The notes: generated by a model from the letters alone, not told the origin. Counted from the stretch's first letter, positions 6,166-13,604 are shown. The stretch: DNA of 20,703 nucleotides from an uncultured archaeon (GCA_964645535.1 CAZYCQ010000004.1:87428-108130); one strand, 5' to 3'. Made by a program: numbers and translations.

Positions 6166-9100
6166 ATGAGAGTGTTCTTATCAACCATTTTTGTATTCCT
6201 GCTAGTGTTTCATTCTAGTCAACCCTTTGTACAAGAGGTTATTTCCCCCTCAAACGATACCCAAAGCGACAGTGAAAAAATCATGTGTTCTGATAGTAGC
6301 AACTTTCTGATGCCCTCAGAACTTAAATGATTTTAAGATACTTAGCCTTGTTTTCTTCGAAATTGAAAAGGACATACTGAAAACCGACCTTCCTCCTCCA
6401 ATGAAAATTTACCATAATTTGCGGGCTGCTGTTTATGAAGTATCTTCTGGCAATTATGATTTATTCCAAAAACATTTTGGAAATAAGTTATTCCCAATTC
6501 CAGAATTTTACCAAAAAATTAGATGGCCCATAACAGAACCCTCGGAAAAGAACATTGTATCATTGGGGGAAATTCCAAAAGGAAGTATGCATGGACTCGT
6601 TCCACTTTGGGAAAAAGGTTATAACGGAACAGGTGTAGTAATCGGCATTATTGATACTGGTGTCGAATTTTCAAATCCCTCACTTTCTCATGCCTATTAT
6701 GCCTATGAATTCTTTGGCTATCCAAATCTTCCAGGTGACAAAATTCATGGAACTGCAGTTGCGAGTGTCATGGTTTCGAATGGAAGTGGCTATCCTGATC
6801 CAGATTTTGCCAAAGGGGTTGCCTATGGTGCAAAACTTGCAGTTGCTGAAATGGCAATGATCGTTATATTTATGGTGACTTTATTGGCGCTTTCGATTGG
6901 TTGCTTGGAATGCCTAAGGTTAAAATAATTAATTTTAGCATGGGCACACGATTGAGTTGGTTTGGAATGATAGCCCAAAGAATTGAACAAGCGAATAAAA
7001 TCTTGGTTGCCAGTGCAGGAAATGGTGGTACAGGTGGATCTGATTTGGATGACCCTTTCACAGTAACTTCTCCTGCAAGTAATCCTCATGCAATTGGAGT
7101 TGGTGGAACAACACCTGACAAAACTCTTTATCAAGCCACTTCAGAGGGACCTGGAGATTTCGGAATCATGAAGCCAGATCTAGTTGCTCAAGCTACAAAT
7201 GTTCTTGTTGCCAGCAAAGAAGGAGACTACTTTTATTGGGAAGGCACCTCTTTTGCAGCTCCAACAGTTGCCGGATCCATTGCCACTCTGATTTCTGCAT
7301 TGGAAGCAAATAACGTGAACTGGACTGTGGCAACCCTTAAGGCAGCCTTAATGAGAACTGCAACTGACTTGGACTATCCAAATTATCAACAGGGAACTGG
7401 TTTGATTAATGTTTCAAGGGCTTTTGATTATTTGATGTCTTTACCAAAGGATCAAGAGGGAATTCCAATTGTCTTTGAAGTAACTCCAAAGGAAGGGTAT
7501 CCTCCGGAACTCAATTCTATACCTATCGGAAGGGATCTTCATTTCCCGGTGACAGTCATTACATCTCATCTGGAAAATGTCTCTTTTGAATTGCAAGGGA
7601 ATTTTACAAGTTTTGCTTCTATCGACGTTCCAATGGTACAGAATTTTTCAAGTCATGAAATAACAATTCACATTACCCCCAATGGATCACAATCGGTTGG
7701 GTATTATTCTGGGGAACTAAGAGTTAGTTTCAATAACGAAACCATGCATGTTCCCATATCTTTCAATGTCCTTTCTGAACCGGCAAAAAAAATTTATGTC
7801 GATGGCTATCATACAGTTCTTGACGACGTCGGAGGATTTGGACTTGCAAGTGACCTGACTGGGGCATTGTCATCAATTCTACTGCAGGATGGATATTGGT
7901 TAGAAATCAAAAATGAACCATTCTCACTGGAAACTCTCTCTCAGTTCGATGCTTTACTCATGATTTCCCCCTTTAAGGAAAATGGATACACGGGTTTTGT
8001 ACCCAATCCAATTACGGATACTGAATTGAAAGTTCTTTTTGAATACTTGGAGCAAGGAGGTTCGCTGTTCTTGACTGGTGATAGTGTAGAAAATGGATCA
8101 CATATTTCACAGCTTGAAAAAATTTCAAAACCATTTGGCGTAACCTTCACTTCCACAGTTCCAGATGATCAACTCATATTGAAGAGAATTGCAAGATTTG
8201 CCTTTAATGAAACTTCAATCAATAGAAATGCAGATGCAATCCAAGTATTCTATGGTTCCCTGAATGTTGAATCTCCTGGCAGACCTTTAGCCATTGATGA
8301 AAATGGTTATGTTTCCCTAGCTTATGGTGTTACATCAAATTATGCAGGAAGGGTAGTATTTTCTGCCACAACACACTTTTTCCAAATAGAATATTTGGAT
8401 AGGGATGTTAAATTTCCCCACTCCACTGAATTTATCCAAGATCTTTTCGACTTCCTCACAAGCAAGGAAAGAATCTCTGTTGTGAATGAAACAATAACCG
8501 AAAATCAAGTCAACTTGGTTGTTAGATCAATGCAGAACGGAACATTTTCTGAAGTTGATCCAAAAATCAAATTAAGGGTTGGAAATGAAGAGGCATTCAA
8601 TTATACCATTGAATACTTGGGTCAAGGGTTTTCTGAAATCCGACTGTTGTTTCTGGAAGATGGATTATTTGAACCGGTAATGTCTTTTGGCAACGATTAC
8701 GTTGCGAGACAGTATATTATCGATACCGCTCCACCTCATCTGCGGAGCGATGATCGCAATCCTTCGAAAATATCTTCAGATCGAGATATTGCTGTTTTGA
8801 ATTTCTTTGCAGAAGACGAATCCGGGATTGATTGGAATAGCTTGGACGTAACTTTGGATGGAAAAAGTGATGGTTTCAACGTCTTCTCCTCCTCAAGCAG
8901 AATTACTGTTTCCTTCGCTCCGCGTTCATTATTACCACTTGAAACCCACACGATCAAAATTGAACTTTCAGATCTTTTTGGAAATGAAGGAAATCTTTCT
9001 TATTCTTTCTTCGTTTCAGGTAGGATTGAAGAAACAAGTTCAAGTATTGAAGAAACAACCCCAAATGATACCGAAACCATGGAATCGCAGATCTCAAGTT

Positions 9101-9192
9101 CGGTACGTGACGTTCCATTTGCGGAAACATCTATGATATTCATGTTGGCAATACTTATGGGTAAAAGACGAAAAGTTCTATTTAGGTCATAA
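6166..9192 (+). pseudogene. S8 subtilisin-like serine protease, secreted/membrane-anchored, MBTPS1 (site-1 protease)-like architecture; split by two frameshifts (sequencing error or recent inactivation)
   Basis: A signal peptide MRVFLSTIFVFLLVF starts at ATG 6166. A +1 shift at about 6311-6328 leads into the ORF containing IGIIDTG (D, 6653) and IHGTAVAS (H, 6746). A -1 shift at about 6850-6855 leads into the ORF containing SAGNGG, KPDLVA and EGTSFAAP (S, 7249). Downstream are an Ig-like region, a GATase-like/DUF4350-like region (KKIYVDGYH...YLEQGGSLFLTGD), another Ig-like region, an S/T/E-rich linker and a hydrophobic-basic tail. The reconstructed length is about 1008 aa. Confidence 0.85.
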
Positions 9193-9253: not shown

Positions 9254-10522
9254 TCACTTTGGCCGCCACTCTTCTTTGCACCATGGGCACTTGGAGCTTA
9301 TCCTTGTCCAATCGTCCAGATGCTGTGAATGGATCGGTTGCGAGCAGATTGAACATCTCTCAAAGTCTTCTCCAAATGAAATCATGGATCTACAGATTGA
9401 ACAGTATTCTAGTTCTGTGCCACAATTTGGACAGTTGATGTATTGGGGATCCACAACTGATCCGCATTTCCTGCATTGAAGATTTCTGTTCCGTCTGTAA
9501 ATGTTCTTGGATCTCTGCCCCATCTGGTATGAAAACGTTTGGACACGCTCAATTCGTCTCCTGACCCAATCCGGATTGGCCACAAAAAGAACTGCCGCAG
9601 GAACAATAAACAAAATCGTGGAAAGGTAGAGCAAACCTTCAAACTTGGTAATGAAATAGCCGATGGAAAAGCCTATGGCACCGAATATGCTGATCATGGG
9701 AAGTCCTTCAAGAATTGTCCTGAAGTTCTCGTGGATCTTGGAGAGTGCCAGAACAACATAGGTAAATGAGGAGGCAACCACCCTCTTTGCAAACCGGGCA
9801 GAACGGCTCAAATACATCGGAAGTCTACTAATCCACTCGAAAAGTACGTTAATGCCGATCAATAGTGAATTCTTTACGAACACCAACATTGTCCAGATCA
9901 GTTCACGAGCTTCCACTCCAGTCAAAACGAGAATCATTGCAATGGTCGTGAGCTGGACGTTCTTTTCGCTTGGTTCAACCCTCATTGTCTCCAAAACAGG
10001 AAACAGGATCTCCTCAACTCCTGTAAAGAATGTGAAAACCAAGAAAACAACAAGAATCGAGATGAGAATGATCAACGGTGATGTCTTGATTCGGTGGATG
10101 ATCCTTTCCAAGGCAAGTTCAAACCCTATTTTCAGTTTTTTGAACGTAGATATCAGCTTAAGATTCAGTTCATACCTTGTGGTGACAAAGCCAAGGACGA
10201 TCAATATCAGTCCCACTGCTGCAAGTGTCCACTGAATCGAGGTATCCACGGTTATGGCAAATGAAAAAAGAAACATTGGCAATGAAACGATGATTGTCCC
10301 CAAGTATACTATGATTGACCCCAATGCCCAATATTCAGCACCCATGATCCGAAGCCTGTCAATGAGGTAACTCAAAATAACCACAAGAAACCCCAGCGTA
10401 ATCAGACCGAATGGAAGTGCTGATCCGATGATTTGCTGAAGAGTCGGAACAAGAAGCAGAATCATTCCAATGAAAGCAAGACCTATCCCTGCCTGTCCTA
10501 TCCGGGTTGTGTTTGCATTCAT
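9254..10522 (-). CDS. Multi-pass membrane protein with C-terminal Zn-ribbon and RING-type finger (putative membrane E3 ligase)
   Basis: About 8 hydrophobic segments are followed by CRKC-x10-CPNC and CSIC-x12-CSIC-x4-H-x2-H-x3-W-x6-CPWC. The start overlaps the upstream stop (ATGA). Confidence 0.8.
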   Translation of the reverse strand: MNANTTRIGQAGIGLAFIGMILLLVPTLQQIIGSALPFGLITLGFLVVILSYLIDRLRIMGAEYWALGSIIVYLGTIIVSLPMFLFSFAITVDTSIQWTLAAVGLILIVLGFVTTRYELNLKLISTFKKLKIGFELALERIIHRIKTSPLIILISILVVFLVFTFFTGVEEILFPVLETMRVEPSEKNVQLTTIAMILVLTGVEARELIWTMLVFVKNSLLIGINVLFEWISRLPMYLSRSARFAKRVVASSFTYVVLALSKIHENFRTILEGLPMISIFGAIGFSIGYFITKFEGLLYLSTILFIVPAAVLFVANPDWVRRRIERVQTFSYQMGQRSKNIYRRNRNLQCRKCGSVVDPQYINCPNCGTELEYCSICRSMISFGEDFERCSICSQPIHSQHLDDWTRISSKCPWCKEEWRPK

Positions 10523-12387
10523 GCCTTGGGACCTCCTAAATCAATTCCTGAAATCTTAAGATCCTCCCTTCTTGCGTAGGTATATCTGGGCATGAGGATG
10601 CCGAAAGTTACCATCATTCCTCCCAGAATGATTGTTTGCAATTCTGGCAGATCTGGAAGGAAGGATTCAAACCACGTTCCTCCGACCGTCCCGGAGAGGA
10701 TCAACAGGATCCCGAAGATGATGCCTGCTATGCCCAAAAAGAAGGAAAGAACCAGAAAAATGTTCGAAAGTATGGCTTCCACCACCTTGAGCATCCACTG
10801 TCCAAATCCTCCAAGGTTATTCCAGATACTCATGAGGATGTTTTTGGGAAGCGTATAAATCCAGAACCTGAAAAATCGGTTGACTGTCCCGAGTAGCACC
10901 AGCCCAAATAAGGCAACAACAGGTCTTGCATAGGGTAGGTCGGGTATCCAAAAATTGAAAATTGACATGGTCAGAAAGGTATATCCAAAGAAATATGCAA
11001 CAAACCTCTGATTTTGAAATGCCTTGAACATGCTCTTTCCAAACTCTTTCATGATTTGTGTGGTCGTATCAAAAGAGAGGGAAAATGAAAGGAAAGAAAG
11101 AATCAATGAAATCCACCATGGAAGGTAGCTTCCAGTCAGTACCACAATGAAGAATACAAGGCTCAAAGAGAGACCAATGAAGGCACGAAGAACCTTTCTG
11201 TTCGCAAAATGCTTGAAATATCTCCTGAATAAGGAACCAGTGATAATCATATAATAGGTCAACCTATCAACCAGTCTCAAAATCCAAAACCGATTGAACG
11301 ACATAATTAGGAGAGTTCCAACCCCTATTGCCAAAACTCTGTACTTTTCTGGAACAATGTCGATCTTTGCAACCAATGCAATTCCTGCAAAGGTCGGAAC
11401 AAGATTGTATTCAATTACAATTCTTCCTGCTGTGGATACTGCATGTCTTGTTCGTATTGCAACCGATTTGGCAAATCTGCCCAACATTCGATACAGCTTG
11501 AAATTGTCAAATGAGTAAAGGCACAATACAGAAAACACGAATAACGGCAATCTAAATTGTTCCTCAACAAAGAAAACCCCCCCAATGCCAATTATTCCTG
11601 TTCCCACAAGAAGAATAGAGGGGTCTTTTAGAATATAATCACGAATCTCAATGATCGTAGCTTTAAGCCCCTCTCCCAAAATTTTCAGCCCTATCCAGAA
11701 CAATCTTGCCATTTTTGGTCCAATGACCATTAAGTCCCTGAACAGAGCCATTACAATCATTACACTCCCGACAATCCAATAGTCAATAGGAAAGATGTTG
11801 GGAACTGGGAGAAATTCAACCATGACCAATATGACTCCAAAAAGAAATAGATGGTATTCAAGGGCAGTCAGTGGATCATTCATGATGAACCTTTGATATG
11901 ATCTTAAAAGCGAGATCAAGTTCTTCGGCAACTGTTTCAGGAATGCTCCGAACCAAATGATCCAGCCTTTGATAAGGGTAAAAAATCCTCGAAACACTGC
12001 TTCAAACAGCCTATCCAGAAGCAAAACCCGGCCAATTATGGCAAAGACTACCATCCAGAACCCAATTAGGGCTAGATTTATCCCAGTGTCCATAAATGTG
12101 TCAATTACCAGCAAAATCGTGGATGAAAGCAATAGGGCATTCAGGAAGTAATTACCCAATGTGCCTTTGTTGGAGAAAATACTAGTCACGAGAATAAATA
12201 GGGTTCCCACTCCTAGAACTTGGAACACTCCTGATGGGACATCTCTTCCATAGATCAAAAGAATGCCTAGAATCAAAGAAACCAGCATCAGGAGATTGAC
12301 AATAAAAAGAAACCAAAGGATAAACTTCTGATCACTGGTTTTCGTCTCATCAAGATTTTTCGAGGATTTGGTGCTCATCCAAGTCAA
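10519..12387 (-). CDS. Large multi-pass membrane protein of unknown function with repeated hairpin + amphipathic-helix units
   Basis: 622-aa ORF with about 14-16 hydrophobic segments arranged in pairs and separated by basic amphipathic stretches. An alternative ATG lies at 12378. Confidence 0.8.
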   Translation of the reverse strand: MTWMSTKSSKNLDETKTSDQKFILWFLFIVNLLMLVSLILGILLIYGRDVPSGVFQVLGVGTLFILVTSIFSNKGTLGNYFLNALLLSSTILLVIDTFMDTGINLALIGFWMVVFAIIGRVLLLDRLFEAVFRGFFTLIKGWIIWFGAFLKQLPKNLISLLRSYQRFIMNDPLTALEYHLFLFGVILVMVEFLPVPNIFPIDYWIVGSVMIVMALFRDLMVIGPKMARLFWIGLKILGEGLKATIIEIRDYILKDPSILLVGTGIIGIGGVFFVEEQFRLPLFVFSVLCLYSFDNFKLYRMLGRFAKSVAIRTRHAVSTAGRIVIEYNLVPTFAGIALVAKIDIVPEKYRVLAIGVGTLLIMSFNRFWILRLVDRLTYYMIITGSLFRRYFKHFANRKVLRAFIGLSLSLVFFIVVLTGSYLPWWISLILSFLSFSLSFDTTTQIMKEFGKSMFKAFQNQRFVAYFFGYTFLTMSIFNFWIPDLPYARPVVALFGLVLLGTVNRFFRFWIYTLPKNILMSIWNNLGGFGQWMLKVVEAILSNIFLVLSFFLGIAGIIFGILLILSGTVGGTWFESFLPDLPELQTIILGGMMVTFGILMPRYTYARREDLKISGIDLGGPKA

Positions 12388-12453: not shown

Positions 12454-12942
12454 TCAAATTTGATATTCCTTCTTGTTCATCACCTGACGGATGGTAAGCA
12501 TTCCTGTTTCCGTATCAAAGATGATGGTTCGTCCATAGTTTTCTCCGACATCTTCCGCAACAATTCGTATCCCCAATCCTTCAAGGATTTTCTTAACAGA
12601 ATCAATATTTCTCCTTCCGATATCTAGATTATTCGAGGCAGTATTGGTCTCAAACATCTTCGCTCCCCCTGCTATCTTCGCAATTAGGTTCTTCCGGCTT
12701 GCACCATGGGTTTCCAACATCCGGATTGCTTCCGGAATGGCTGTTGTTGCGAATTTTCCAGGATTGGCTCCCTGATCGCTATTCATTTCTGTCGGAAGAA
12801 GGACATGAGCCAAGGCAGCAATCTTGGTGTTCTTGTCATACAAAACCACGCCTACACAACTCCCAAGAGCTAGTGCCTGAAGTTTGGCGGGAGCACGGGC
12901 GATCTGAATCTCCCCGATTTTGGCAGTCAATACCTGCGACAT
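12454..12942 (-). CDS. cheD: Chemoreceptor glutamine deamidase CheD
   Basis: ALGSCVGVVLYD (catalytic C), AHVLLP (H), KIAGGAKMF, IGRRNI and DVGENYGRTI. The start is placed at ATG 12942, overlapping the cheC stop (TGATG). Confidence 0.95.
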   Translation of the reverse strand: MSQVLTAKIGEIQIARAPAKLQALALGSCVGVVLYDKNTKIAALAHVLLPTEMNSDQGANPGKFATTAIPEAIRMLETHGASRKNLIAKIAGGAKMFETNTASNNLDIGRRNIDSVKKILEGLGIRIVAEDVGENYGRTIIFDTETGMLTIRQVMNKKEYQI

Positions 12943-13604
12943 CAATACATCGCCTCCCAATTCTCTCCATACAGGGTGGTCATCAAGGCATTCATGGCCT
13001 TTCGATCCGGTAGCATGAGGATATCTCCCTTGATTTTTTCCTCGTCCGTGAAGATGTCCACCTCAACCAGAAGAAATTTGTCTCCTGTATCTCCTTCAAT
13101 TGAAACAAGCTCATCAGTTAATGCACCTACCATGTCTATGGCAAGGCTCGGTGCATGGGGGAACCATTTCGCTTCGGTAAAGCTGTTGATCGCTGAAATG
13201 GTATGAATAAGAAGGATATTGCCGGTTTCTTTGATGATGGATCTTGAAAGTTCATCTAAATCTTCAATCCGGCTTGGAATGGGTGATGCAACCAAGGTTC
13301 CAAGGAGTTGTTTGATGGATTCGAAATCGAATATGAGCAAAAGGTTCAGAACACCCTTTTCATCCTCAGACGTCTCTTGCAGTATACCTGCTACAACCTC
13401 CTCTGGTGTTTCCGCCAAGTATTCTCCCACATCTGCTATCGGGACAAACCTGACCCGCGGAATGCTCATATCAACCCGTCGGTTCAGAAGTTGCGAAAGT
13501 GCAGTTGCTGCATGACCCACACCAATATTGCTTAACTCCTGAAGGGCCTCAATCTTTGGATCATAATCTTCAAAGAGCCCATCATCGGGAATCCTTAAAC
13601 CCAT
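12942..13604 (-). CDS. cheC: CheY-P phosphatase CheC
   Basis: Two CheC E-x2-N motifs, ALQELSNIGVGHAATALSQLL...SIP and IIKETGNIL...APSLAIDM. Adjacent to cheD. Confidence 0.93.
   Translation of the reverse strand: MGLRIPDDGLFEDYDPKIEALQELSNIGVGHAATALSQLLNRRVDMSIPRVRFVPIADVGEYLAETPEEVVAGILQETSEDEKGVLNLLLIFDFESIKQLLGTLVASPIPSRIEDLDELSRSIIKETGNILLIHTISAINSFTEAKWFPHAPSLAIDMVGALTDELVSIEGDTGDKFLLVEVDIFTDEEKIKGDILMLPDRKAMNALMTTLYGENWEAMY

Follow-up and report, generated by a model that had tools for sequence, protein, structure and literature searches.

Hrd1, a ligase of endoplasmic reticulum-associated degradation (ERAD), has a published layout of eight transmembrane (TM) helices. To our knowledge, membrane ubiquitylation, whether in ERAD, by MARCH and RNF receptors or in the tagging of cargo for the endosomal sorting complex required for transport (ESCRT), is still regarded as a eukaryotic invention. 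Soluble RING ligases encoded in archaeal ubiquitin operons are known and active, and the Heimdallarchaeia are the Asgard group nearest to eukaryotes. An active cascade of ubiquitin-activating enzyme (E1), ubiquitin-conjugating enzyme (E2) and RING ligase was reported for a Helarchaeial operon (bioRxiv 10.1101/2023.07.25.550441), and that preprint cites a reconstruction from Caldiarchaeum (Hennell James 2017). In a full-text literature search, with most subscription journals outside its reach, no publication dealt with a polytopic or ERAD-like RING protein from Asgard archaea. Here we describe such a protein (P0001; 9254..10522, - strand), encoded in a 20,703-nucleotide stretch of DNA from an uncultured archaeon (GCA_964645535.1, CAZYCQ010000004.1:87428-108130; hereafter the window, with positions counted from its first letter). 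We favor the view that P0001 is the catalytic subunit, facing the cytoplasm, of a RING ubiquitin(-like) ligase that is made of two membrane proteins and is specific to Heimdallarchaeia; we would give this view a probability of about 0.55. This reading is favored because the residues expected to contact the E2 are conserved and because the genome has ubiquitin machinery of its own.

A conserved gene ending in a zinc ribbon and a RING finger

The open reading frame (ORF) at 9254..10522 (-) is a real, conserved gene whose translation is 422 amino acids long. Among 5.8 billion proteins searched, three full-length homologues were found, with 64, 62, and 41% identity. When 1.84 billion representatives were searched with a profile covering only residues 1-345, 29 clusters matched (22 with E<1e-10), and nearly all have a size of 400-450 amino acids and the same C-terminal zinc ribbon and RING. 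The family alignment used throughout contains 24 sequences with 20-64% identity.

The zinc ribbon (amino acids 348-371; 9410..9481, -) is defined by Pfam matches and by the invariant residues C350, C353, C364, and C367, arranged as CxxC-x10-CxxC. It is followed by the RING finger (amino acids 374-416; 9275..9403, -), whose ligands are ordered as C374/C377-x12-C390/C393-x4-H398-x2-H401-x10-C412/C415, that is, C4H2C2 in cross-brace order. An earlier note, made from the DNA sequence alone, had placed a zinc ribbon and a C4H2C2 RING near nucleotides 9278-9475; they were found at 9275-9481. That note also pointed to a Trp four residues past ligand 6 and a Pro directly past ligand 7. These are W405 and P413, and together with all 12 zinc ligands (four in the ribbon and eight in the RING) they are invariant in 24 of 24 sequences, far beyond chance. 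Position 376 (I376 in P0001) is Ile or Val in every aligned sequence, and a basic residue, Lys or Arg, follows the last Cys in 23 of the 24 (K416 in P0001). Positions 376, 405, 413, and 416 align with the same positions in RNF165, and such residues contact the E2 in solved RING-E2 complexes (c-Cbl, RNF4, and Arkadia). The earlier note had read the Trp and Pro as marks of an E2-binding RING, and conservation of the E2-contact positions across the alignment supports that reading.

Sequence and fold comparisons pointed to the same group of RINGs. Searched against Pfam, the isolated tail matched Zn_ribbon_3 (27.8 bits) and DZR (30.2 bits), each above its cut-off. The best phmmer match of the tail in the PDB was the RING-H2 of RNF165/Arkadia (E 2.4e-6), and the family profile matched RNF165 (1.8e-8), then EL5, RLIM, and the HRD1 RING (4e-6), with further matches to RNF38, listerin, gp78 (2e-4), RNF13, and Rbx. 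An AlphaFold2 (AF2) model built from the alignment was compared by Foldseek and matched 5ulk_C with a root-mean-square deviation (rmsd) of 1.2 A over 47 residues at 40% identity; the modelled RING superposed on the RNF165, RNF12, and RNF13 RINGs of E2~Ub complexes with an rmsd of 1.2-2.0 A at 29-40% identity. In the model, the central helix (H399-408) bears the conserved Trp.

The RINGs of Arkadia, RNF165 (Ark2C), RLIM, EL5, and RNF38 are thus the closest in both sequence and fold (rmsd 1.2-1.7 A, 40% identity), and P0001 shares with the Arkadia/RNF165 group the order of the ligands, the hydrophobic residue in the first CxxC, the helix Trp, the Pro and the basic residue after ligand 8. In contrast to that group, P0001 is an archaeal protein, its finger is C4H2C2 rather than C3H2C3 with no His at ligand 4, a zinc ribbon precedes the finger and an anchor of eight TM helices precedes both. 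Judged by alignment and predicted fold, the finger is a RING of the RING-H2-like type and not a PHD finger.

Membrane domain and orientation

The membrane domain (9578..10498, -) has eight predicted TM helices that form four hairpins (amino acids 9-32/36-55, 67-87/95-114, 148-167/187-203, and 273-292/296-315), as delimited by hydropathy and charge averaged over the 24 homologues and by the AF2 helices. The earlier note's count of about eight TM segments is in agreement with this. Basic amphipathic helices, predicted to be cytoplasmic, follow hairpin 2 (amino acids 115-147) and hairpin 3 (amino acids 204-272), and a basic juxtamembrane helix (amino acids 316-347; 9482..9577, -; residues 317-343 in the AF2 model), with about eight Lys and Arg residues and a net charge of +5.8 per sequence, joins TM8 to the zinc fingers. 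The stretch 208-231 is hydrophobic in P0001, but its family mean is 1.22 on the Kyte-Doolittle scale with 2.5 Lys and Arg residues per sequence, and it is therefore predicted to be amphipathic and not membrane-spanning.

The family-averaged net charges of the cytoplasmic segments are +1.3, +3.5, +6.7, and +5.8, whereas the outside loops are very short and have net charges of 0, -0.4, -2.8, and -0.7. By the positive-inside rule this charge bias places both termini inside the cell, and the RING is therefore predicted to be cytoplasmic, which answers the earlier note's question about the side of the membrane on which it lies. Within the membrane domain, L57, G68, G75, G111, L119, and N120 are invariant, and a motif after TM4 (GF-TE-YDLN-K) is conserved.

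The membrane domain appears to be specific to the family. No Pfam family was detected on residues 1-345 in any of the 24 members, and no sequence match to these residues was present in the PDB. The AF2 model had a mean predicted local distance difference test (pLDDT) score of 84.6 and a predicted template modelling score (pTM) of 0.46; at this pTM, the finding that Foldseek against the PDB and VIA-align returned only generic hairpins for the TM domain is weak evidence. ESM-Atlas gave no usable match when searched by features, and when searched by structure its template modelling scores were at most 0.33 by query and at best 0.53 by matched model. Rows for TRPA1 and IFT-A in the Foldseek output for the TM domain were discarded as meaningless (rmsd about 29-44 A). 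An internal duplication is not claimed, since the first two hairpins alone align, and weakly (hhalign 68%).

In another Heimdall family (P0031 and P0032), only TM helices 1-4 recur, inside proteins of 540-1400 amino acids. There the RING is replaced by several separate CxxC zinc ribbons together with long regions of coiled-coil or acidic character.

A co-inherited membrane partner

Upstream of the RING gene, and in the same orientation, lies a gene (10519..12387, -) encoding a 622-amino-acid polytopic membrane protein with about 11-13 hydrophobic segments and no Pfam family. The coupling junction lies at 10519..10536 (-). Read directly from the sequence, the ATG of the RING gene overlaps the stop codon of the upstream gene (ATGA, 10519-10522), and a Shine-Dalgarno-like GGAGGT (10531-10536) is located 8 nucleotides ahead of the ATG.

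This arrangement is conserved. Among 20 family loci from several genera and two orders, a large membrane gene on the same strand precedes the RING gene in 19, overlapping or abutting it. The intergenic gap is -4, -1 or 0, and the -4 overlap recurs in distant loci; a gap of -13 at some loci is an artefact of choosing the first possible start codon. With two partner ORFs cut by contig ends omitted, the partners are 500-1153 amino acids long and have 12-21 hydrophobic segments. They diverge more quickly than the RING protein does: between the same two genomes, identity was 45% for the partner and 62% for the RING protein. Pairwise BLAST and phmmer gave no link between distant partners, and profile-profile comparison was needed: hhalign joined partner groups with probabilities of 95.9 and 89.1% across 371-478 columns, while 40 polytopic decoys from the same genome reached at most 2.4%. 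The partners at two loci (L027 and L029) had no hhalign link to the others (at most 19%). Because the gene pairing, the overlap and the homology of the partners are conserved, the two genes form a co-inherited module, which by its sequence features is probably co-translated. Kinship between the TM domain of the RING protein and the partner is not claimed; hhalign probabilities against three partner groups were 1.6, 10, and 76%, which is suggestive at best.

The TM-domain profile matched 36 of 301 genomes of the Asgard phylum, with one copy in each and only in Heimdallarchaeia: 8 of 10 genomes of the source organism's own family, 19 of 29 genomes of a second family and 1 of 1 of a third within the same order and, as partial matches, 7 of 21 in one further family. 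No match was found in the approximately 240 other Asgard genomes searched. Family members are labelled Candidatus Heimdallarchaeota (the 41% homologue), Heimdallarchaeaceae or Hodarchaeales. The earlier note had mentioned neither the upstream membrane partner nor this restriction to Heimdallarchaeia.

Ubiquitin machinery of the genome

The source genome (3.6 Mb in 176 contigs, 89% complete) encodes three ubiquitin-like proteins, three ThiF E1s and three Cdc48 proteins (CDC48_N matches). Three UQ_con (E2) matches were above the cut-off. Two of these (contigs 22 and 28) have an HPN motif and a catalytic Cys; the ORF on contig 28 begins at profile position 11, so that its N-terminal helix may be missing. 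The third, and one match below the cut-off, are like ubiquitin E2 variants (UEVs) and have coiled coils. An operon on contig 22 (L025:2929-7274, -) encodes two ubiquitin-like proteins, an E1 (ThiF), an E2 (UQ_con), a JAB deubiquitinase and a RING protein of 362 amino acids with three TM segments and a C-terminal RING. The operon's ubiquitin-like proteins have N-terminal extensions of 50-65 residues, and one ubiquitin-like protein of the genome ends in ..EGG-YGNF, which resembles a pro-form. The genome thus bears out the earlier note's statement that Asgard archaea encode ubiquitin-system components. That note had named a PHD or other non-RING fold, or a genome lacking E2 and ubiquitin genes, as grounds for abandoning a ligase function; the finger modelled as a RING, and genes of both kinds are present.

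About 16 RING domains of the variant CxxC..CPxC-x4-HxxH..W..CPxC are encoded in the genome, including that of the operon RING protein. The paralogues are fused to anchors of one or three TM segments or are part of large soluble proteins of 695-908 amino acids, and five of them also have the tandem of zinc ribbon and RING. The tandem that terminates GATOR2 and IFT-A subunits thus exists in these archaea as a mobile unit. P0001 shares its RING variant with the genome's own operon RING and so resembles the archaeal ubiquitin-operon RINGs (Caldiarchaeum 'srfp' and the Helarchaeial protein), for which in vitro E3 activity is published (bioRxiv 10.1101/2023.07.25.550441), whereas the activity of P0001 is only predicted. 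P0001 differs from them in being encoded outside such an operon and in having a zinc ribbon, a conserved eight-TM domain and a probably co-translated partner. A complex prediction with the zinc ribbon/RING tail and the operon E2 (L025:4704-5225, -) scored 0.00 against a mark of 0.32 and, run without controls, carries no weight on either side of the question of binding.

Two proteins, encoded on contig 52 (4880-5638) and contig 9 (21705-22334), have the E2 fold but lack the catalytic Cys, and in each a long coiled coil follows the fold. Their sequences suggest the UEV-Vps23 type reported from Asgard archaea (bioRxiv 10.1101/2023.07.25.550441).

Proposed function and alternatives

In the proposed mechanism, the family-specific eight-helix domain would anchor P0001 in the cytoplasmic membrane so that its N and C termini both face the cytoplasm, and the basic helix would hold the zinc ribbon and the RING-H2-type finger just beneath the membrane. 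A charged E2 of the genome's own system would bind the RING through Ile376, Trp405, and Pro413, and K416, the basic residue past the last Cys, may promote transfer to lysines of membrane-proximal targets. The polytopic protein encoded upstream would be a stoichiometric partner, either as the part of the complex that selects or holds clients or as the regulated target itself.

Several points weigh against this mechanism. The match to zf-RING_2 (PF13639) scored 18.2 bits with the whole protein and 22.0 bits with the tail, below the cut-off of 27.3, although the same family is matched at E<=0.01 in 17 of the 24 family members (best 4.2e-6) and a whole-genome scan returned a zf-RING_2 match at exactly 9275..9403. 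The canonical C3H2C3 spacing, with Cys-x-His at ligands 3 and 4, is replaced by CxxC-x4-HxxH. When P0001 is aligned to RNF165, C393 falls on the canonical third ligand and a variable residue on the fourth-ligand His, the extra ligand being provided by C390, three residues upstream of C393. Within the window no ubiquitin gene is linked to the RING gene, whose neighbors are cheC/cheD and a subtilase gene, and the ubiquitin-like proteins of the operon end in ..STAGK and ..STAGVW, not in GG. Because of the pTM of 0.46, the packing of the TM helices in the AF2 model is not reliable, although its secondary structure is trustworthy. E2 binding, ligase activity, complex formation with the partner and the substrates are all features that we infer. 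Finally, the zinc ribbon/RING ends of GATOR2 and IFT-A subunits are largely structural and serve mainly to join subunits.

This last point is the basis of the chief alternative to a catalytic subunit, in which the tandem would be an assembly or dimerization knob of an oligomeric membrane scaffold formed with the partner and would transfer no ubiquitin. Across the two fingers, from profile position 5 to 75 (positions 5-75), the family profile matched WDR24, MIOS, WDR59, IFT122, and WDR19 with E values of 1e-6 to 1e-4, residues 341-421 matched IFT121/IFT144-type zinc-finger ends in the ESM-Atlas (74-79 residues, rmsd 2.7-3.0 A), and GATOR2 chains were among the matches listed by Foldseek and VIA. 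A shape in which TM hairpins alternate with long basic amphipathic helices is also compatible with membrane shaping or scaffolding. P0001 thus shares the two-finger tandem, as a unit, with GATOR2/SEACAT (MIOS, WDR24, and WDR59) and IFT-A (IFT121, IFT122, and IFT144/WDR19), but these are soluble, coat-like subunits in which a beta-propeller and an alpha-solenoid precede the tandem, in place of the membrane and amphipathic helices seen here. The RING alone is closer to catalytic ligases and fits a catalytic RING-H2 better (1.8e-8, 40% identity, rmsd 1.2 A). The E2-contact residues and the basic residue past the last Cys are kept in the family, which a finger with a purely structural role would not require, and the RING of the genome's ubiquitin operon is of the same variant. 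We therefore regard a non-catalytic scaffold as rather unlikely. It is very improbable that the finger is not a RING at all but either a RING-CH finger of the MARCH type or a treble-clef reader, PHD-like or other, of peptide, lipid or nucleic acid. The spacing of ligands 3-6 does equal the textbook spacing of PHD and RING-CH fingers, the subthreshold zf-RING_2 score would fit such a finger, and one PHD-containing chain (KMT2C) appeared at E 0.005 in the family-profile search. The PHD and RING-CH families of Pfam, however, were absent even at E up to 1 and in the scan of the 24 members, all top sequence and fold matches were RING-H2 fingers with RINGs making up the top 50 fold matches, the modelled central helix has its conserved Trp and ligand 6 is His, not Cys.

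A catalytic RING protein of this kind could also be a quality-control ligase that takes misfolded or orphan membrane proteins, perhaps through its partner, ubiquitylates them and passes them to Cdc48 and the proteasome, as a functional analogue or forerunner of Hrd1, gp78 or Doa10. Like Hrd1/synoviolin and gp78/AMFR, P0001 has a polytopic domain with both termini predicted to be cytoplasmic and a RING-H2-type finger past the last TM helix, and its eight TM helices reproduce the layout of Hrd1. The RINGs of HRD1 and gp78 are among the family-profile matches, Cdc48 and an E1/E2 cascade with a deubiquitinase occur in the same genome, and the dedicated polytopic partner could be a client-binding or channel-like subunit. 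The Hrd1/gp78/RNF145-type layout claimed by the earlier note therefore stands, but kinship beyond the RING is not supported: the membrane domain has no detectable similarity to those of Hrd1, gp78, RNF145 or TRC8 by Pfam, PDB sequence, Foldseek or VIA-align, which is weak evidence at the pTM of the model, full-length synoviolin aligns through its RING alone (8kes_A residues 289-332), and the zinc ribbon is an addition. In place of a Hrd3/Sel1- or Der1-like protein, the partner is a Pfam-less polytopic protein. The best match to Derlin (PF04511) in this 89% complete genome scored 18.3 bits, below the cut-off of 26.6, and has an internal stop; one ordinary rhomboid is present. RNF165, Arkadia, EL5, and RLIM, none of them ERAD ligases, outscore HRD1, the neighborhood has no hint of membrane-protein proteolysis, and restriction to Heimdallarchaeia is narrow for a family ancestral to ERAD. 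On present evidence, "ERAD-like" is best taken as an analogy of layout and not as a sign of homology, and we consider a quality-control function, and equally a role as analogue or forerunner of the ERAD ligases, to be doubtful.

More specific still, and unlikely as a whole, is a prokaryotic membrane ubiquitin-ligase complex in which the partner selects membrane proteins for extraction by Cdc48 and the proteasome or for sorting by ESCRT. Were this so, ubiquitin-dependent surveillance of membrane proteins, with the logic of ERAD or of endosomal down-regulation, would already have been in place in the Heimdall lineage, the closest to eukaryotes, and would have used a membrane domain that shares no ancestry with that of Hrd1 and the tandem that later ends the coat-like proteins of GATOR2 and IFT-A. 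The value of the locus is tempered by the absence of detected homology to the Hrd1 membrane domain and by a function that we infer throughout. As a conserved, single-copy polytopic RING protein with a membrane partner, the catalytic subunit proposed here is a cloneable candidate for asking whether membrane ubiquitin ligases predate eukaryotes.

Neighboring genes

Gene content around the module varies among family loci. In the window, cheC and cheD (12454-13604, -) share the strand of the partner gene and lie immediately upstream of it, with a gap of 66 nucleotides. The order cheC-cheD-partner-RING is retained in the relative at 62% identity and lost in more distant members; at one locus (L028), the module has a response regulator gene and a gene for a CheA-P2-like protein close by. 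At a Hodarchaeales locus (L029; JBSWQE010000040.1, 2148-14812), a gene for an Arf-like small GTPase is upstream of the module on the opposite strand, and genes for a ubiquitin-like protein, a ThiF E1 and a weak match to E3_UFM1_ligase (23.9 bits) are located 3-6 kb downstream on the same strand. The ubiquitin-like and E1 genes are 3-5 kb from the module, and their proximity favors a ligase.

On the other side of the RING gene, an S8 subtilase gene (6248-9192, +) is broken by a frameshift near 6856-6859. In alignment with an intact orthologue of 1013 amino acids (L011), frame 2 covers residues 25-230 of the orthologue and frame 1 covers its residues 231-1001, and the ORFs at 6401..6928 and 6901..9192 each match Peptidase_S8. 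The split subtilase is either a pseudogene or an assembly error of the metagenome-assembled genome.

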